Sequence record: DRR723986_9968
DNA length: 64,000 nt
Strand: one strand, 5' to 3'
Of the stretch, positions 39,410 to 62,031 are shown piece after piece (within the stretch, counting starts at the first letter, position 1; each line of letters begins with the position of its first letter). Made by a program: the position numbers and the translations under genes. A model generated the notes under the pieces. That model was given only the letters and a program-made list of their open reading frames with translations. It ran no database searches and was not told the DNA's origin.

Positions 39410-39862
39410 ATGAGTAACATTCAACATTTTTATGATTTAATTGAACGAAGTATACAACAACTTGGTGTAGACCCGGTTATTACCAGGGGTCAAATTGCTG
39501 GCCAATGGTCCTTGGTTAAAGGAAGCGCTAAAGTCTATATCGATTGCTGGCACATAGAAAGTGAGGGTCGTTCTTACTTACAAGTTATGGCACCCGTTAT
39601 GCAAATTCCAGCAACTCAAAAAGAGTCATTCTATTTCGATTTACTATCATTTAATAATAAATTATATTCTTCAGCTTTTGTGCTGCATAATGATTGGGCA
39701 TGGGTAAAAATGTTGAGAGAATGTGATGGTTTAGATCAGGCTGAAACGTTTGCCATAATCTCACGAGTAGGGCATTACGCAGACCAATATGATGATTTGC
39801 TGAAAGCACATTATGAAAGTACAGCAGCCAAAGATTCGGCAGATGCAACTGGTTCACGATAA
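39410..39862 (+). CDS. YbjN-domain (T3SS-chaperone-like fold) protein
   Basis: WSLVKGSAKV, LQVMAPVM, LLSFN and VGHYADQYDD motifs. Confidence 0.7.
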   Translation: MSNIQHFYDLIERSIQQLGVDPVITRGQIAGQWSLVKGSAKVYIDCWHIESEGRSYLQVMAPVMQIPATQKESFYFDLLSFNNKLYSSAFVLHNDWAWVKMLRECDGLDQAETFAIISRVGHYADQYDDLLKAHYESTAAKDSADATGSR

Positions 39863-40255
39863 ATGCAAGATTTTAAATACGAAACCTACGTTGAATTATT
39901 TGATTCGCTTGAGCCCGAAGAGCAAATAATTGTTCAAACATTGAAAGAAATTATTGAGACAAACATTTCTGACATTAAATGTAAATTAAGTTGGAACATA
40001 CCAGCATTTTATAGAAACAAAAGTATTTGCTACATATGGCCGGGGAGTGTAGCCTGGGGAAAACAGACTTTTTCTGGAGTGCAATTAGGGTTTAATCACG
40101 CAAATAAGATGAATCCTAACAATTATCTTGAGCGCGGAAATCGCAAACAGGTCTATTGGAAAATATTTCACTCGATAGAAGAGATTGAAAATGACTATGA
40201 AATAATCTCCGAACTGTTGCAAGAAGCCAACGAGATTGATTTGGTGAAAAAATAA
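39863..40255 (+). CDS. DUF1801/YdhG-like protein
   Basis: KLSWNIPAFY, ICYI, VQLGF and LLQEA motifs. Confidence 0.75.
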   Translation: MQDFKYETYVELFDSLEPEEQIIVQTLKEIIETNISDIKCKLSWNIPAFYRNKSICYIWPGSVAWGKQTFSGVQLGFNHANKMNPNNYLERGNRKQVYWKIFHSIEEIENDYEIISELLQEANEIDLVKK

Positions 40256-40365
40256 AGGGAGTCCTTCCTGCTTACAAAAGAACTCCCCCTCCCTTTAGCG
40301 GAATCACCGCCCATGAAAAAATTACTATATCCCAAATTTAACTGCTCAGAATCGAGCAATTGACT
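40248..40365 (-). ncRNA. Candidate small RNA 1 (three hairpins, anti-ATGAAAAAA motif, intrinsic terminator)
   Basis: Hairpins at 40340-40361 and 40298-40310, terminator at 40257-40287 plus U-tract. G-U wobbles work only on the minus strand. No minus-strand CDS follows. The 5' end is approximate. Confidence 0.55.
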
Positions 40366-40489
40366 AAAACTATTTGTTAGGCAAAAATTAGACGTTCACT
40401 TGACAAACGGTGAACATAAAAGTTGATAAACGGTTTATTTGTAGGATGCATGATATATTCTGAATCAAACTCTTAATTTTGTCATCTAA

Positions 40490-41518
40490 ATGAATCAGTT
40501 TACAAAAGGTTATTTACGGTTTTCTTGGTTGACTTTGGTGTTTATTTACCTAGTTATTATTGCTGGTTCAGTTGTTAGAACATCTGGGTCGGGCATGGGC
40601 TGCCCAGATTGGCCTAAATGTTTTGACCAATACATTCCGCCCACTTCTGAATCACAACTGCCAATTGATTATAAAGATAAGTATGCTGAATATCGAGCCA
40701 AAAAGATCGAGAAGTTTTCGAAATTTTTAACCGCGATTGGATTTGAAGAAACTGCACAAGAGTTAAGAAATGATGATTCTTTGCTAATTGAGCAAGATTT
40801 CAATGCGCGTAAAACTTGGGTAGAATATGGCAATAGGTTAGTAGGATTTATCGCCGGAAATATGGTATTAATTCTATTCATTTGGACGGTAATCCGGTAC
40901 AGAAAAAAAAGAGCCCTACTTATCCTGACCTTTATAAACCTCATATTAATGGGTATTGAGGGGTGGTTTGGATCTATCGTGGTGGCAACGAATTTGGTTC
41001 CTTGGACAATTACCTTGCACATGTTCTTAGCTCTTGTAATCGTTGGTATTCACATCAAAATTATTCGTATAATCCGTGATAGGAGCTATCAATTGCAACC
41101 CCAGCCCCTATTTAAGTACCTTTTTTATTTCTCTGTCATCTTGACATTTATTCAGATAATTTTAGGTGCACAAGTCAGGCAAGAAATAGATTTTATGGTT
41201 TTTGAAATGGTAGATCGCAGTTCATGGATATCCAACATGGAAGGAGATTTTTATTTTCACCGATCATTTTCATGGCTTTTACTTGGTGTCAACCTCATCT
41301 TACTTTATTTGAATAAGAAAAAGAAATATGGTATTCCTACGATTAAAATAATTGTTGGATTACTGTTAGTTGAGTTCATAACCGGTGTGTTATTTTCATA
41401 TGCCAATATGCCAGCATTCACTCAACCAGTGCACCTCTTGGCTGCCTCAATACTCCTTGGTGTACAATACTTTACTTTTGAGTATTTCCATTTCAAGCGT
41501 GAAAGCATGATTCGTTAA
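40490..41518 (+). CDS. ctaA: Heme A synthase (COX15/CtaA family)
   Basis: VRTSGSGMGCPDWPKC, WVEYGNR, LHM, FHR and PVHLL motifs. Confidence 0.88.
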   Translation: MNQFTKGYLRFSWLTLVFIYLVIIAGSVVRTSGSGMGCPDWPKCFDQYIPPTSESQLPIDYKDKYAEYRAKKIEKFSKFLTAIGFEETAQELRNDDSLLIEQDFNARKTWVEYGNRLVGFIAGNMVLILFIWTVIRYRKKRALLILTFINLILMGIEGWFGSIVVATNLVPWTITLHMFLALVIVGIHIKIIRIIRDRSYQLQPQPLFKYLFYFSVILTFIQIILGAQVRQEIDFMVFEMVDRSSWISNMEGDFYFHRSFSWLLLGVNLILLYLNKKKKYGIPTIKIIVGLLLVEFITGVLFSYANMPAFTQPVHLLAASILLGVQYFTFEYFHFKRESMIR

Positions 41519-45221: not shown

Positions 45222-48200
45222 ATGAAAAAATTTATTCTAAGTCTAATTTGCCTATTTAGTCTTCTTGACGGATATTCTCAACTAGACGTAAAACACTTTA
45301 TTCCACCTTTGTATGGTAGAACGAATGTACAGAATCATTACATGATTCTGTCAACACCTTCTGCTGCACCAGTCAATGTTGACGTAAAAAACGGTCAAGG
45401 AACAATATTATTCAGTGTGGTGATTACTGATGTTGCTCCATCAACCACTCTATTAGGAACGGGATATGCCGCAGATGGAATAATAAATACTGCTGAACTA
45501 AACACTGTTAATCCTACTGACGGATTTATTGTAGAAGCGTCTGCTCCAATTTATGTAAACCTAAGACACGTGCAGAATGCCCAAGGTTTGAGTTTGAATT
45601 CGAAAGGAGCTAGTACTGGATTAGGAACACGTTTTCGTTCAGGACATATTTTTAACTCTGCCGCTCTTCCTCATGTAAAAGCCAGTGAAATTTCTGTAAT
45701 GGCTTCAGAGGATAATACCACAGTGACGTTTACTGATATCAAACCGAACGTTGTATTTAGAGGAACACCAACAACGGCGGGAACATCAAATGATATAGTT
45801 GTCAACTTAAACGCAGGTGAATCTTACACTATTGCGGCATGGCTTGACGAACCAGGAGCAACCGGAAATGTAAATGATGTAAACGGAACATTGATAACTT
45901 CAACAAAACCGATTGCATGTAACACAGGATCATGGCTAGGTGGAGCTCACGGAAATTTAAGAGATATAGGAGTTGATCAAATTGTACCTGCAGATTTAAT
46001 TGGTACACAATACATCTTCGTTGAGGGTGATGGAAATGCTAATACAGAGAGGCCACTTGTGGTTGCTGAATACAACAACACAGACATTTTTGTTAATGGA
46101 AACCCTGTACCTATAGCGAATATCAACGCAGGAGAATATTTTTATTTACCACAAACAGCTTATTCTGCAAATGACAATATTTATATTGAAACATCAGAAC
46201 CGGTTTTTATGTACCAGTCATTATCCGGTGCCAGCCCGGCTGCCACTAGCTTAAACTTTATTCCACCACTAAGATGTAACGGCTTTAAAAAAGTTGTTAT
46301 TCCATCAGTGAATCTTGTTGGTGTACCAACGGTGAGTATTACTGCAAGAACAAATGCAAGCGTTTTTGTAAATGGATCTGCAACTCCCTTGACTGGTGGT
46401 TTGACGGTACCTGGAAATGGATGTTGGGTAACTTATAAAATACCAGGTGGAGTTGGTGATTTTGTTGTAGAATCTGACAGTATCATCAATGTAGCTCTAT
46501 TGACTTTACAAGGGCCTAGAGGAAGTGCTGGTTACTTTACTGGCTTTGCCCAATTTACCCAAATCGATCAAGGTGATACCTCGTCTTTTATTGTTTGTGA
46601 GGATCAAGCGTCTAGCTTTGTCACCTATAATATTGACGGCCCGTTTTTTAATATTTCGACTAATTTTCACGACCCTTCTTTAGGTGGTGCCGTAACTGTT
46701 GATGGCTTTAATGCCGATACCTTATTCTTCACCTATACAAGGAACCCAGGAACAAATGGTCCAGACACTTTAGATCTAACTGTATGTAAATTACTAGATT
46801 GTTGTGGTGCTGCTCCAGATACAATTTGCGAAACCTCTACACTTGTTTTTACCAATATCAATGCAATTAATACGGGAATTGGTGACTCATTAACCGCTTG
46901 TGCAGACACAACAGATATTCAAGTTGCTGATATTTTACTAGGAACCCCTGACCCTGGTTATTGGGTAGATACAGACAATACCGGTGCATTATTTGGTAAT
47001 ACCATCAACACATCTTCATTAGCCCCAGGAGTGTATAATTTCACTTATTATGTGGATGGTGGATCTATTTGCTTCGACTCAACCATTGCGACTATTAACG
47101 TGCTGCCTATGTCAAGTTCAGAATGTTGTTCTATTGATCCAAATTTTGTACTGGCCGATCCGACCTGTTTTGGATTTACGGACGGTTCCATGGTAATTAC
47201 TGATCAATACGCAACAGATTATAGTATTGACGGAGGTACCACAACTCAAGGAAATGGTAACTTCCCTGGGATTGGTGCAAACAATTATAACGTGAACCTA
47301 TCCTTTGGACCGGATTGTATTTATGATACTGTAATCGTTATAAATGAACCTGCACAATTGGCATCAACTTTCGTGATTGATTCGGTTTCATGTAATGGCG
47401 ATTGTGACGGTCAAATTCAAGCTAACGCATCAGGTGGAACAACTCCATATACCTACTCATTAGGAGGTACTCCCGGACAAGCATCCAACACCTTCTCAAA
47501 CCTTTGTGCCGGACCAGCTACTATTACCATAACTGATGCAAATAATTGTCAAGAAGTATTTCCAAATACAATATTTGAACCAGCCGTACTCACCATTTCA
47601 GTGGGATCTGTAACTGACGAAACTTGTACACAAGCAAATGGTTCAATTACGGTTAATGCGAACGGCGGGACTGCTGCATATACTTATACTCTAGATGGTG
47701 GAGCTGCACAATCAAGTTCTACATTCAATAATTTAGCTGCTGGGACTTACACTTTAGAAGTTACTGATTTTAATGGTTGTACAGCATCCATGGACATAGA
47801 TGTTGTTGACAACCCACCTCCTGCTCCTTTTGTTGATGTTCTGAACAATGTGACTTGCGCAGGTGGACTTAACGGATCAGTAACAATTGGTGTAGTTGAT
47901 GGAACCGCACCTTTCCAATACAGCTTAAATGGTGGAGCAAATCAAGCCAGCAATACTTTTCCAGCAGTGCCTGCCGGAAACCATACGGTAGTTGTAACTG
48001 ATATCAACGGATGTACTGGATCAATAAACTTTGATATAACTCAGCCTACTGCCTTGAATTACTCAACAGTAGTAACTCAAGTAAGTTGTTTTGGTGATTG
48101 TGATGGTCAAATCGTTGTAACTGCAGGAGGAGCTACGCCACCATACACTTACAGCTCTGATAATGGCCTTACCTTTTCACCAATTAATACTTTAGATAAT

Positions 48201-56600: not shown

Positions 56601-57694
56601 AAAATGTCTTTTCCTCCTGAATGTGTATTTAAAAAACATGAATCTGAAGCAATACCATCAACTGAATTGGTATAACCGGTAATCGTCACATTGAAAAAGG
56701 TATCTACCATTATTGAGCTCGCTAAATCTTCACCTAAACCGCCATAGTAAGTAGACCAGATTTTGCCCCCATACTGATTGGTTTTTACAACGAAAGCATC
56801 AAAAAGACCACCGGCCATGGTGTCTTGATGAACACCAGAAGTTGCCAAATTTGTGAAAGACTGCGTATATCCAGTCATGTAGACAAATCCATTGTTGTCA
56901 GTCATTACATCTGCTCCTCTATCAATTAAGGTATCGCCATAGTAAGTAGCCCAATCCATTGTAATCGTTGGGTCGATAATTAACGCTTGCTGATTCAAAT
57001 CAAGGCCCTTAGGTAGTTGATAGGTCAGTGTTAATTCATTTTGAGATTGCGAAGTTACGCGATAAGTAACTGCCACTTTTTCACCGCTACCTACAATCCA
57101 ACTTTCAGGAATAAATTCGGTTACCTGGCCAAAAGCCAATTCGAAATCAACATTTTCATCAATTTGAGCGCTGTTGAATCCTGAATAATTTAATTGGATA
57201 TTGGATGGATTCGCACCTTCATTCAGGATGAAATCAAACTTAAACTTTCCATCTTTCACATTAAATTTTAAATCAATTTGTGGATAGATGTCTTTATAAA
57301 TTATCGATTCATAATGACTAGACTTGAATGCTGAATTATCGCTAAGACCAGTAGTATAATAATTGATGTAATCACTTGAGGAATTCTCTGCTGTAATAAC
57401 TGGATTTTGATTAGCTCCAATTAATTTCACATCAATTCTGTGAAAAGCTAATTGCCCTCCGCCTATATTTTTATACAAATCATAGGCGAAGCCGTCAGTC
57501 TTAAGTTGAACATTTAACCTTTTCTGATCTGAAAATAAATAAATAACATCTGTGTTCTTTTTACCGTTTTGATCAATCAACTGACCTTTATTTTCGATAA
57601 AACCGAAGTTAGTGTTTGAAGATTTGTTTTGGGAGTTTACGCTAAACGGCAGGAGCAGACATAGCAGTAAAAATGATTTTACTAAGTTTTTCAT
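53690..57694 (-). CDS. T9SS type B cargo with SBBP-like propeller repeats, SprB repeats and CTD
   Basis: FIENKGQ N-domain, WxTYYGGxxxD repeats and PTIFSPNGD..VFNRWGE; coupled to porP/sprF. Confidence 0.9.
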   Translation of the reverse strand: MKNLVKSFLLLCLLLPFSVNSQNKSSNTNFGFIENKGQLIDQNGKKNTDVIYLFSDQKRLNVQLKTDGFAYDLYKNIGGGQLAFHRIDVKLIGANQNPVITAENSSSDYINYYTTGLSDNSAFKSSHYESIIYKDIYPQIDLKFNVKDGKFKFDFILNEGANPSNIQLNYSGFNSAQIDENVDFELAFGQVTEFIPESWIVGSGEKVAVTYRVTSQSQNELTLTYQLPKGLDLNQQALIIDPTITMDWATYYGDTLIDRGADVMTDNNGFVYMTGYTQSFTNLATSGVHQDTMAGGLFDAFVVKTNQYGGKIWSTYYGGLGEDLASSIMVDTFFNVTITGYTNSVDGIASDSCFLNTHSGGKDIFVAQFNDNGLRLWSTYLGGAGDDEGTAVDTDYDGFVYVAGYTQGSSGLASSGAHQLGNNGLTDGFFVKLDTFGFPMWSSYYGGPAEDKIFSIAQEGNNIVIAGTTNSPSDISSSGAHQSALAGMEDAFLACFDQSGNRNWATYYGDIDDDHAADVDIYNTRIYMLGKTASDTNMATAGAYKMSADSVDAYLVKFDTLGNIMWGTYFGGEGFDEGIELGLELDSNIYVFGNTTSALDIASYDNYDTTYNGGIDAFIAKFHYNGYFLHASYYGGLEDDILAGGDVYGNTALYLCGTTKSIDSIAFNTYIQDTLAGLEDAFLTRFNTKKSTICNGLTCNGSIADTICQDTLILSMLGGALGQGANWVWYEGGCGPLGTQIGIGETISYYPSTGNVSIFVRAESVNNATNCMWLDLFVVPKPTVDITVNDSVLCINDSLVLSTTTFDQYIWAGPNAFSDYQQMVVIDSLDTVNSGTYYLTVVDDHGCYAQDSIEIIVNENPTTSISVVNTTCVGNSDGAIQVAAAGNGNLNYVWEHTSLDTNQLNNLLAGLYVLTVSDSNNCSSLDSIVVQNPPSPVINGTIVPNDCEANNGSIDVDINGNPADFIFSWSPTSAGTQNISNLGDGTYTITVTDSNACDFIETFVVPYQNNLTLDSISVSHETCFGDADGSASIVLAGGEVPFNYNWDPTLTNSSSVTDLAAGIYIVTITDAFECELIDSVEILAAPEIVINLDSLGHEFCSEMNGFIYTSASGGQGNLSYFWSPSGSTADYLTDLEAGFYTVTITDSLSCSADTTIEVIDYPGPSVVINASSLLVGAGQTATLEAQVSPSGVYAYLWTPSSNLDCDTCQIVTASPNMDEMYSVTVTDTNGCKAYAELEIKLDRCKDYFLPTIFSPNGDNLNDDWTLMGDCVDEFSLKVFNRWGEIIYSGDSQVNPWTGEFKGALVDNGSYVYQLEIKFHDGEMLSESGNVKVMK

Positions 57695-57844
57695 TGTTTT
57701 GGGATTTACACTCTAAATTATGGCCTTATTATCAATTAAAAAAGACAAAGTCTCGCCAAAACTTAGATAATTATACAACTCAGAAAAGATCAATAAATTG
57801 TAAAAATGTATTTCAGTTTAATGAAGTGTAGCGCTCATTGATTA

Positions 57845-57955
57845 AACTAAAAAACGCCCAGAGTTATCTCCAGGCGTTATCCATGAAAAAATCTACCAAT
57901 GACTGTGCTTACTATTTCAATCATCTAATAGTTGATTCGCTACTTAAACAAATCT
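57845..57955 (-). ncRNA. Candidate small RNA 2 (anti-ATGAAAAAA motif directly before an intrinsic terminator)
   Basis: Minus-strand TTG-N17-TAAATTTG promoter (57960-57987); terminator AACGCCTGGAG-ATAA-CTCTGGGCGTT plus U-tract (57849-57878), with G-U pairs only on the minus strand. Confidence 0.6.
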
Positions 57956-58057
57956 TGTACAAATTTAAGCTAGATGCTCACGCTCAATGTTAACTGATTA
58001 TTGTCTATTAATTATTAAATTGATTGTAGCAATCAAAGACCTATCTTTGTCCTTGAA

Positions 58058-59296
58058 ATGAAATTTGAAGATTACCGCATATCTTATCAGCTGAAAAACA
58101 ATTTGGATCAAATGGGTTTTAAAAGACCCACCGATATTCAATTTAAATGTATTCCTGCGATACAAAAAGGTGAAGATTTATTAGCAATTGCTCAAACTGG
58201 GACTGGGAAAACTGCAGCTTTTGGAATACCCTTAATTGATAAAATTCAATTAATCAAACAAAAGACAAAGACGCATGCAATTCGGGGCATTATTATGGTG
58301 CCAACGCGTGAGTTAGCGGTTCAAATCACTGAAGTGCTACATCAATTAGGTAGAAATACAAGTGTACGAACACAAGTTATTTACGGTGGAGTTGAGCAAG
58401 ACGCTCAAATTGATGCCCTAATAAAAGGGGTGGATATTATTGTTACAACACCAGGTAGGATGTTTGATTTAACATCACAAGGCTACATCAAATTAGATAA
58501 GATAGAGGTGTTGGTTTTGGATGAAGCTGATCACATGTTAGATTTAGGTTTTTATAAGGACATTCAAGATCTCATAAGATTTTTGCCGGAACGAAGACAG
58601 ACACTTTTCTTTTCGGCAACCATAGATAAAAAAATTAAAAAATTAGCCTATTCATTGGTTCGTAACGCCATCAGAATCCAAATTTCACCAAAAGATCCAG
58701 TATCAAAAAATGTAGCGCATTCAGTAGCCTATGTTGAAATGGATGATAAACGTTTTTTCCTTGAACGCTTAATCAAAGAAAATCCTGATTTCAAATTTTT
58801 GGTCTTTGTACGGACAAAAGTTCGAGCTGAAAGAGTTAAAGCGGCTATGGCTAGAGTTGATTTGATTACAGACACCATTCATGGAGATATAGAACAGCAG
58901 CAACGAGAAGATGTGTTGGAGCAGTTTAAAAATGGAAGTTTAAAAGTGCTGATCGCTACAGATGTCAGTTCTCGTGGAATTGATATTCCCGGGATTGATT
59001 TTGTTGTTAATTATGATTTACCTGATCAGGCAGAGAATTATGTGCACAGAGTTGGTCGTACCGGAAGAGGCCGCGCAAAAGGTCAAGCTTTAACTTTCTG
59101 TAGTTCAGGTGAGAAAGAATTGTTAGAGGCAATTGAGAAATATACATCAGTGCCCATAGAAGTTGCAGAAATTAATAAGGCCGAGTATCAAGAAACCGTT
59201 ACTTTCACCGAACAAGGCACAGACAATTGGCAAGCTCTTTTAGAGAAAGACGAAGCCGATAAAAAGAAAAAAAGAAAAGGAAAGAAGAAAAAATAA
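58058..59296 (+). CDS. DEAD-box RNA helicase (RhlE-like)
   Basis: AQTGTGKT, PTRELA, TPGR, DEAD, SAT and HRVGRTGR motifs; Lys-rich tail. Confidence 0.95.
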   Translation: MKFEDYRISYQLKNNLDQMGFKRPTDIQFKCIPAIQKGEDLLAIAQTGTGKTAAFGIPLIDKIQLIKQKTKTHAIRGIIMVPTRELAVQITEVLHQLGRNTSVRTQVIYGGVEQDAQIDALIKGVDIIVTTPGRMFDLTSQGYIKLDKIEVLVLDEADHMLDLGFYKDIQDLIRFLPERRQTLFFSATIDKKIKKLAYSLVRNAIRIQISPKDPVSKNVAHSVAYVEMDDKRFFLERLIKENPDFKFLVFVRTKVRAERVKAAMARVDLITDTIHGDIEQQQREDVLEQFKNGSLKVLIATDVSSRGIDIPGIDFVVNYDLPDQAENYVHRVGRTGRGRAKGQALTFCSSGEKELLEAIEKYTSVPIEVAEINKAEYQETVTFTEQGTDNWQALLEKDEADKKKKRKGKKKK

Positions 59297-61014: not shown

Positions 61015-62031
61015 CTAATGAATCCTTGGTGCACCCAATTTCGATTCGAGTTGAGGCACAAACTTCAAGAAACATTCGACCGCACCAACGCCTTTTGTTG
61101 CTGCTGAAAGCCCAGATAAATTCATGTCATAAGACACACCGGCTGATAAAGAACCTGCTTTATAAATAAGGTTTGCAATTATCGCGTCATTAGATCTGTA
61201 ATAGACTCCTAAAGACAAGGCCATGCCATCAAAATATCCTGTATGTTGAGAAACAGGTTTTAATTCAAATTCGAAATTATTTCCAAAAGTAAACTCGAGA
61301 TTTGGACCTTGTTTCATAGCGAATATTGCTGGATGATAAGACACTTTACTTTCGCCTTGCCAAATATTAAATTGACTATAGAGTGTAAAGTTTCTGTAGA
61401 GTTTCTCCGAGATTTGATAGAAACTTACTTTTTGTCCTGTTAAATGGAATCCGCTAAGTCCAACTTGATACGTGAAGTTTTCGTTCACGCTTGAATTGTA
61501 AAAAACCCCTGCAGAAAAATCAAATTTAGACAGGTTGAAATCACTTAAATTTTCTCCATTTGAAATGGTTTGGTCAAATCCACCACCGTTCCATTGACTA
61601 TCAAAATAAAGTTCATTTTCTTTTAAACTTTGCATGTACATCCCTGGTTGCAACCCAACAGCCAAATAAGACTTCGGTCCCACTTTTATTGAATAATTCA
61701 AAGGGATTGAGATTACGTTGAGGCTATATCTAGCATCTCCAGAAACATCATTGACAAAGTTAATTCCTGCGCCTATAAACCCATTTGATAAAGAACCTTC
61801 AAAAAGTTTAGTGTCAAAACTTGCAGAAATACTTCTAAAAGAAGAGTTTGATAGGGTGAACCACTGTGTTCTGAAATTCGTAAAGAAGCTCATTCCACCT
61901 GGGTTGTGACCTGCAGCACCCGGGTTCAATTGAACCGGATTTTCAAAGAACATAGAGTAATGTTTATCTTGCTGTGCTAAAGAACCAAATGTTAAGCCTA
62001 AAAGCACTGTTATTGTTGCTAATTTTTTCAT
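61015..62031 (-). CDS. PorP/SprF family T9SS membrane protein
   Basis: AQQDKHYSMF, LNPGAAG, FRTQW and GVSYDMN motifs. Confidence 0.92.
   Translation of the reverse strand: MKKLATITVLLGLTFGSLAQQDKHYSMFFENPVQLNPGAAGHNPGGMSFFTNFRTQWFTLSNSSFRSISASFDTKLFEGSLSNGFIGAGINFVNDVSGDARYSLNVISIPLNYSIKVGPKSYLAVGLQPGMYMQSLKENELYFDSQWNGGGFDQTISNGENLSDFNLSKFDFSAGVFYNSSVNENFTYQVGLSGFHLTGQKVSFYQISEKLYRNFTLYSQFNIWQGESKVSYHPAIFAMKQGPNLEFTFGNNFEFELKPVSQHTGYFDGMALSLGVYYRSNDAIIANLIYKAGSLSAGVSYDMNLSGLSAATKGVGAVECFLKFVPQLESKLGAPRIH

Follow-up and report, generated by a model that had tools for sequence, protein, structure and literature searches.

What does the 234-nucleotide (nt) spacer between a DUF1801 gene (39863-40255, plus strand) and ctaA/COX15, the gene for haem A synthase (40490-41518, plus strand), encode? 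The spacer lies in a 64,000-nt stretch of sequence record DRR723986_9968, referred to here as the window. An earlier interpretation based on the letters of the window (the sequence-only reading) had proposed that the minus strand of this spacer specifies a trans-acting small RNA (sRNA), whose unpaired 'anti-start-codon' stretch blocks translation initiation by pairing over AUG-AAA-AAA. Named records that match the ctaA protein place the window in an uncultured genus of the Crocinitomicaceae (Flavobacteriales), next to Crocinitomix. We compared the locus with these relatives and conclude that it is probably a real minus-strand RNA gene. The reading we favour is that of an sRNA of approximately 80 nt, a diverged paralogue of a multi-copy Crocinitomicaceae family, which would pair in trans with AUG-AAA-AAA starts; we put the probability of this reading at about 0.42. 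As a sequence feature the original observation was confirmed, and its interpretation as a whole was partly supported.

Conservation of the element upstream of ctaA

A plain DNA search of 41 relatives matched the spacer only in G001, a genome of the same species that is 99% identical at the locus and was used in place of the window's genome. Because the DNA search stopped at the same species, we used the synteny of ctaA as an anchor. Among 121 genomes of the family, the gene turned up in 106; we examined 30 loci. An exact CCATGAAAA was present no more than 500 nt upstream of ctaA at 10 of the 30 loci; one of the ten (G108) is without a terminator, looks unrelated and was set aside. At two more loci (G004 and G080) CCACGAAAA stands instead of CCATGAAAA, and two further ctaA-linked copies of Crocinitomix came from named loci. 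The record of Crocinitomix algicola carries a ctaA-linked copy (L057). In G008, which belongs to the window's genus, ctaA has another neighbour and no element.

In 13 distinct sequences from two Crocinitomicaceae genera, the element is located upstream of ctaA and points away from it. The only invariant columns in the alignment of these sequences (A1) are TTTTC-TGG, and the stretch that had been called 'anti-start-codon' is exactly this unchanging part, UUUUC(A/G)UGG. The sole variation in the CAU triplet is a change from A to G, which still pairs with AUG by G-U wobble and destroys the plus-strand ATG. A minus-sense hairpin follows the box in all 13 sequences, and a run of at least five U-rich bases is found 3' of the hairpin in 11 of them (G003 and G113 are without it). 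The distance from the element to ctaA varies from 170 to 290 nt, and the element stays by ctaA also in loci where DUF1801 is not the next gene or could not be located (G003, G005 and Crocinitomix). The strand is indicated by the folds: the minus-sense fold is more stable in 12 of the 13 sequences, which together hold 37 G-U pairs in the minus sense vs 8 in the opposite sense.

Directly after CAUGG, a small hairpin forms in six of the seven copies of the window's genus, with a stem that varies in sequence, keeps its pairing and takes in a G of the box; the copy in G004 has none. Since RNAalifold returned zero consensus pairs on the MAFFT alignments A1 and A4 (the latter of the wider family described below), with the stems out of register, the family profile R2 was built from sequence only; claims on differing stems rest on per-sequence folds. 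A loop motif is shared as well. GUAAGCC(A/G)A occurs in the terminator loop of four of the six Crocinitomix ctaA-linked copies, GCC.A being invariant in all six (A3), and (A/G)UAAGC also recurs in the 5' region of wider-family copies (A4).

A covariance model of the six Crocinitomix copies (R1) was searched against 151 family genomes. It gave one strong match per genome (E <= 1.5e-11) in six of nine Crocinitomix genomes; four of these are the ctaA-linked coordinates already known, and the other two are in G139 and G152. The R1 search did not recover the copies of the window's genus. A weak R1 match in G013, just after a 471-amino-acid (aa) gene on the same strand, may be due to chance.

A multi-copy family in the Crocinitomicaceae and beyond

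Units of the same design were found away from ctaA. Three loci, one of them in the window (57896-57881), share the 16-mer GUAGAUUUUUUCAUGG. The exact 16-mer GTAGATTTTTTCATGG occurs 27 times in 18 of the 151 family genomes, and we inspected 28 sites, i.e. these 27 and the window's own copy. Twenty-six share one layout, which consists of a 5' (A/G)UAAGC(A/G)U...GUAAUAGUAGAUUUUUUCAUGG, a GC-rich hairpin with a copy-specific stem, and a U-run; on the opposite strand, the open reading frames (ORFs) at these sites are short, with 5-41 codons. Of the other two sites, one is a genuine gene start (that of a DUF2911 protein) and one is without a terminator-like hairpin.

Across genera, 16 nt are invariant in 25 distinct family copies (A4). 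In 22 of the 25, the RNA-sense hairpin is the more stable one, G-U pairs number 43 in the RNA sense vs 5 in the opposite one, and the 8-nt tail contains on average 5.3 T vs 1.0 in the opposite sense. Indels between the conserved blocks GUAAGCAU and GUAAUAGUAGA appear by eye to be 2, 3, 5 and 9 nt long, mostly not multiples of three.

R2, the sequence profile of these 25 copies, matched every genome of the window's genus (8/8), of Crocinitomix (9/9) and of two more genera (2/2 and 4/4), with one to four copies per genome; at E <= 0.001 it matched 30 of the 151 family genomes. Across 151 sampled genomes of the order, R2 matched five that belong to three other families at E <= 1e-4. Four of these matches were inspected, and they read AAUAAGC...AGUAG(U/A)UUUUUUCAU(G/A)G followed by a terminator and a U-run. 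Matches to the 16-mer with one mismatch outside the carrier genera lie mostly inside genes and are not sRNA-like.

The second copy in the window is a typical member (Table 1; R2 score 41.2 bits, E 1e-11) and is flanked by a minus-strand CHU_C/SprB-repeat gene of 1334 aa, which starts at 57694, and by a plus-strand gene for a DEAD-box helicase (58058). The spacer there is divergent, and the CHU_C/SprB-repeat gene points to type IX secretion. The ctaA-linked locus itself matched R2 at 40275-40332 on the minus strand with 17.2 bits and an E of 3.1e-4 in a 134-kb search, a weak match in which AUAGUA-AUUUUUUCAUGG aligns to the R2 consensus AUAGUAGAUUUUUUCAUGG with a 1-nt deletion. As in the family layout, a terminator hairpin and a U-tract follow the box in the same sense. 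The exact 16-mer GUAGAUUUUUUCAUGG is not present at the locus, which is one base short of it and has an extra small hairpin, and for this reason the locus was filed as a diverged sub-family. The R2 results for the ctaA-linked copies of other species (given below) led to the same assignment, and the ctaA-linked RNAs are read as a sub-family that has diverged while retaining the box and the design of a GUAG-U6-CAUGG family. The proposal of an sRNA gene is supported by conservation, while the picture of a lone sRNA gives way to that of one diverged copy among several.

In the complete genome G003, a weak R1 match led to UUUUUUCAUGG followed by a strong terminator; this unit runs antisense to the genes on either side. 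This genome has 55 CCATGAAAAA sites: 12 head ORFs of at least 112 aa, five are a box with a terminator and no long ORF, and the rest are inside genes. Two more units of UUUUUUCAUGG plus a strong terminator (L165 and L166), with atypical 5' regions and with ORFs of 21 and 64 codons on the opposite strand, are perhaps diverged paralogues too. A copy-like unit, GGUAGAUUUUUUCAUGU plus a hairpin, was seen at G007:C10:3161-3174 (L268), about 11 kb from ctaA on the same contig. In a Crocinitomix copy (G016, L209), an additional hairpin (about 30 nt) separates the GUAAGC...AAUAGUAG block from a second GUAGAUUUUUUCAUGG, which suggests a partial duplication within the RNA.

The predicted transcript and its possible targets

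Within the window, we found all the elements that had been listed (the hairpins, the unpaired stretch, the terminator and the U-tract) on the minus strand, and the strand-specific pairs as well: the 5' hairpin and the terminator each hold a U-G pair that is a C-A mismatch on the plus strand. Both neighbours are plus-strand genes and, as had been noted, no minus-strand gene follows the element. A terminator scan gave a hit on the minus strand only (40290..40254, 15 pairs). For positions 40240-40440, the fold of the minus strand has -50.0 kcal/mol (z -2.54, equalled by 3 of 200 shuffles) and that of the plus strand -39.9 kcal/mol (z -1.98). The signal inside the window is modest by itself; the case for more than chance comes from conservation in other genomes.

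In the transcriptome of Flavobacterium psychrophilum, the accessible part of the report describes a sigma-A box TAnnTTTG at -12 to -5 (PMC9723704). The locus has an exact match to this consensus 11 nt before the U-run, and a TAnnTTTG box with at most one mismatch is found 7-15 nt before the U-run in all seven ctaA-linked copies of the window's genus. The position of this -7 box suggests that the RNA starts near 40328 and extends to 40247, which corresponds to a length of approximately 80 nt. The extent first proposed, 40248-40434, is probably too long, because the 5' hairpin is unconserved in a four-genome alignment of the spacer and its 3' arm overlaps the -7 box; this hairpin, which had been taken as part of the RNA, is probably promoter spacer. 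A CTATT(A/T)TTT-type box precedes the 16-mer by about 20 nt in many typical copies of the family, whose start would accordingly be placed near the (A)GUAAGC motif. In a syntenic context that looks hydrolase-like/DedA-like by eye, some copies follow a gene on the same strand at a distance of about 115-120 nt and could be made from the 3' untranslated region of that gene instead.

A search for public RNA runs gave a single metatranscriptome (X1), with a 0.19 share of sampled words. Its two contigs in this region extend over 39600-40064 and 40522-41097, so that the spacer is left bare. As contigs cannot show small RNAs, the bare spacer says nothing either way.

Table 1. Elements of the ctaA-linked locus and of the second family copy in the window
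Feature	Position	Strand	Basis or remark
5' hairpin AAUUGCUC/GAGCAGUU	40361-40340	-	sequence and fold; probably promoter spacer, not RNA
sigma-A -7 box TAAATTTG	40333..40340	-	exact match to Bacteroidota consensus TAnnTTTG
predicted ctaA-linked sRNA, ~80 nt	40247..40328	-	5' end predicted; 3' end is the end of the U-tract
single-stranded 5' region AUAGUAAUUUUUUCAUGG	40328-40311	-	sequence
box UUUUCAUGG	40319-40311	-	invariant except A/G at position 7 (alignment A1, 13 sequences)
small hairpin GCGG-UGAUU-CCGC	40310-40298	-	minimum-free-energy fold; stem extended by one G of the CAUGG box
small-hairpin stems in the window's genus: GGCGG/CCGCU, GGCAGA/UCUGCU, GGCGGU/ACUGCU, GGC/GCC (twice), GGGCCU/AGGUCU			per-sequence folds
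terminator GGGAGUUCUU/AAGGACUCCC	40287-40257	-	sequence, fold
terminator-loop motif GUAAGCAGG	40275-40267	-	sequence, fold
U-tract UUUAUUUUUU	40256-40247	-	overlaps the stop codon of the convergent DUF1801 gene
second window copy, typical member, AGUAAGCAC...GUAGAUUUUUUCAUGG with terminator AACGCCUGGAG/CUCUGGGCGUU and U-run	57840-57922	-	16-mer at 57896-57881

Between the element and ctaA, two direct copies of TTGA(C/T)AAACGGT, 23 nt apart, are located about 55-90 nt upstream of ctaA (window 40399-40434, plus strand). A related block, TTGATGAACGG (CCGTTCAT on the opposite strand), is conserved upstream of ctaA in the window's genus and in Crocinitomix; a regulator of ctaA or of the sRNA promoter may bind at repeats of this type. 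The gene ctaA has a -7 box of its own, TAATTTTG, at 40475-40482 (plus strand), 7 nt before the ATG and within the context GTTAATTTTG in most of the genus. Its position suggests that the ctaA mRNA is leaderless or nearly so.

According to the favoured reading, the RNA would be transcribed away from ctaA from its own sigma-A-type promoter and would end at the intrinsic terminator that abuts the DUF1801 gene. The family would share an unstructured 5' region, an almost invariant U-rich ...UUUUUUCAU box, a GG at the base of a helix, and a terminator hairpin. Action in trans appears most likely: initiation regions of mRNAs that read AUG-AAA-AAA(-U..), as is usual where Met-Lys-Lys signal peptides begin, would be bound by the unpaired 5' box, and in a host that does not use Shine-Dalgarno sites, such pairing would cover the start codon and the first codons and hinder binding of the 30S subunit. 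Genes that start with AUGAAAAAA are the presumed responders, and through the paralogue-specific bases 5' of the U-run, the target sets of the copies would differ in part. We consider this start-codon pairing possible and put it forward tentatively. The further idea that U6-CAU acts family-wide as an 'anti-initiation-region', a global brake or tuning device on the secreted and outer-membrane proteome with paralogues under different signals (oxygen, haem), is speculative and, in our estimate, doubtful. The terminal GG of the box appears to be paired inside the RNA and is probably structural rather than a partner for a CC before AUG. Pairing of the GG within the RNA would explain why the five window genes that start with ATGAAAAAA have no CC in front.

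These five ATGAAAAAA gene starts, on which the sequence-only reading had drawn, are indeed present; the window has nine such sites vs 6.0 expected by chance. The 13-nt CATGAAAAAATTA agrees with the PorP/SprF gene start at 62031 without a mismatch; this match is not clearly special, with -16.9 kcal/mol vs a mean of -11.3 (standard deviation 3.2) over 88 candidate starts. Many AUGAAAAA starts are complementary to the box, and none stands out or is conserved. Both CCATGAAAAA sites in the window are the sRNA loci themselves. Among the 12 long ORFs (at least 112 aa) headed by CCATGAAAAA in G003, 11 begin in a signal-peptide-like manner (by eye), and the set includes an M43 peptidase, the haem-uptake protein ChaN and an outer-membrane beta-barrel protein; this likeness to signal peptides is partly built into the Met-Lys-Lys motif.

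Three candidates for a conserved target were rejected. The DUF2911 gene has the exact 16-mer at its start in G002 and not in its G007 orthologue; a multicopper oxidase has a 14-nt match in G003, with no equivalent seen in four other genomes; and for PorP/SprF the complementarity is variable among homologues. Two further observations concern single genes. The 5' region of the second window copy could pair with the start of a 2304-aa gene (45222) over 15 consecutive positions, two of which would be G-U (hand count, unscored). In G095, a gene for a 234-aa exported protein (MKKSTTLII) is apparently present in three copies on three contigs (L206), and its start is the complement of the 16-mer with one mismatch; G095 itself gave no R2 match at E <= 0.001.

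Several points weigh against the favoured reading. The RNA gene is deduced from sequence comparison and its transcript is a predicted one, the transcription start is placed from a consensus box only, and in the ctaA-linked copies of Crocinitomix no consistently placed -7 box was found. The R2 similarity of the window's ctaA-linked copy is weak, and R2 is not significant for the ctaA-linked copies of other species (E 0.069 and 0.2, or no match). As for the targets, the best complementary starts in the window, at 45222 (-17.1 kcal/mol) and 62031, are within about two standard deviations of the mean of the 88 starts. In five carrier genomes, counts of CCATGAAAAA amount to only 1.0 to 2.1 times those of the reversed control, and CC does not precede ATGAAAAA at any true gene start of the window. 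The complementarity varies from 7 to 12 nt (by eye) at the start regions of the best PorP/SprF homologues in five relatives, and the genomes compared share no orthologous gene that matches the 16-mer almost perfectly. The A-U-rich duplexes are weak. Moreover, 16 nt that are invariant across genera exceed the usual mRNA seed and could reflect a protein-binding site or another RNA partner.

This last point leads to the rival that, because target specificity is weak, remains serious although we consider it unlikely: the RNA is real, and its invariant box is a site for a protein (a single-RRM protein like RbpB, or S1) or for an abundant RNA, with a role as decoy or sponge or in stability. Besides the length of the invariant block and the lack of a conserved specific mRNA target among those compared, a second single-stranded motif, (A/G)UAAGC, in the 5' regions of the family and in the ctaA-linked terminator loops fits such a partner, and in Bacteroides both FopS and GibS bind RbpB, as stated in the accessible text of PMC11697453. 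The A-to-G variant in CAU, which retains pairing with AUG, speaks for start-codon pairing instead, as do the bases 5' of the U-run, which differ among paralogues as expected for diverged seeds. Regulation in cis, in which divergent transcription or the RNA itself controls ctaA by promoter interference or leader pairing, would account for the ctaA synteny across two genera. However, the window's ctaA start (AAAUGAAUCAG) is a poor match to the box, the conserved -7 box a few bases before the ATG leaves almost no leader, and family copies exist at unrelated loci; we give this explanation little credence.

An RNA product could also be dispensed with altogether, if the hairpin were a two-way terminator of DUF1801 and CCATGAAAAA an operator or promoter element of ctaA. 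The hairpin abuts the DUF1801 stop codon and is preceded on the plus strand by A-rich sequence, G006 has a plus-strand T-run after the hairpin as well, and other conserved blocks (TTGAYRAACGG) lie between the element and ctaA. Such a passive, DNA-level role is nevertheless improbable, as the box keeps a fixed position relative to the hairpin and not to ctaA, the element persists at ctaA without an adjacent or detectable DUF1801, G-U pairs and U-tracts point to the minus strand, and the box-plus-terminator unit recurs at unrelated loci. The plus strand, finally, contains a 16-codon ORF (MKKLLYPKFNCSESSN, 40313-40363), named by the sequence-only reading as the alternative functional unit, which could encode a small protein, a leader peptide or a type I toxin and whose ATG followed by AAA AAA is a favourable start. 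This ORF is not conserved in relatives: at ctaA its counterparts range from about 4 to about 38 codons (by eye; 38 in G003) with unrelated sequences, and ACG replaces ATG in G004 and G080, so that a functional peptide is very unlikely. The indels and short ORFs of the wider family point the same way, as do the position of the ATG, 0-5 nt after a strong GC-rich hairpin, and most copies being without a plus-strand terminator after the ORF. A non-coding minus-strand RNA gene is strongly favoured by the comparison with relatives, which shows the conservation, strand, layout and copy number of the element and its lack of coding potential; the transcription start, the action in trans and the kind of target are inferred.

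Relation to known regulatory RNAs

A comparison with Rfam 15, which the sequence-only reading had suggested, returned zero matches at gathering score in the whole window and hence none at the locus; in 40100-40600 and 57700-58060 there was none even at E <= 10, FopS/GibS included. In Proteobacteria, sRNAs that occlude the start codon or the ribosome-binding site usually cover the Shine-Dalgarno sequence and depend on Hfq or ProQ. The pairing proposed here would resemble theirs in that it lies over the initiation region and blocks the 30S subunit, but the complement is AUG and the first codons.

The closest likeness is to GibS and FopS of Bacteroides thetaiotaomicron. As described, these sRNAs combine a terminator with a conserved 5' seed that is single-stranded, and they exist as multiple paralogues; they bind mRNAs without Shine-Dalgarno sites at or beside the start codon and repress their translation, the targets being mRNAs for outer-membrane and exported proteins (PMC7366714, PMC11697453). 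The family described here is similar in design only: its folds show a conserved, unpaired 5' seed and then an intrinsic terminator, and several paralogues occur in a genome. The setting, as far as the available text allows the comparison, is also alike, i.e. a phylum without Shine-Dalgarno pairing, paralogues that are intergenic or at gene 3' ends, and sigma-A-type promoters. The differences are that no similarity to FopS/GibS exists in sequence or by covariance model, that their hosts are Bacteroidales whereas those here are Flavobacteriales, and that the box here is a plain U6-CAU complement of the start and Lys-Lys codons. The copy number differs as well, with 14 FopS copies per genome in the accessible text vs 1-4 here. 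The FopS authors state, in the same portion of their report, that their own model was submitted to Rfam (PMC11697453).

Within the same order, the Rfp sRNAs of F. psychrophilum are newly described, and some are conserved beyond the species; pairing with mRNAs of secreted proteases has been predicted for them (PMC9723704, available sections). Rfp18 differs in that it is described as pairing via its third stem-loop and not via a 5' U-rich box; an overlap of the present family with one of Rfp1-89 is possible (PMC9723704). Our literature searches found no description of a family such as the present one, with the Rfp sequences in the supplements of PMC9723704 outside the comparison; for the environmentally abundant Flavobacteriales they returned little beyond the F. 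psychrophilum RNA catalogue, and for the Crocinitomicaceae nothing.

We therefore rate the family, from its sequences, as a putative undescribed sRNA family of a known type, the trans-acting sRNA with a 5' seed; it is widely distributed, and its anti-start-codon box is unusually plain. What is known of riboregulation in Bacteroidota comes almost wholly from gut Bacteroides, and this would be a rare conserved multi-copy sRNA family outside that genus, with enough comparative evidence for an Rfam-type model. It can be tested in cultured Crocinitomix, where it would show whether the mRNAs of exported proteins are controlled as a class. A box that is a plain complement of AUG and two Lys codons would offer a direct handle on the control of initiation without Shine-Dalgarno sites.

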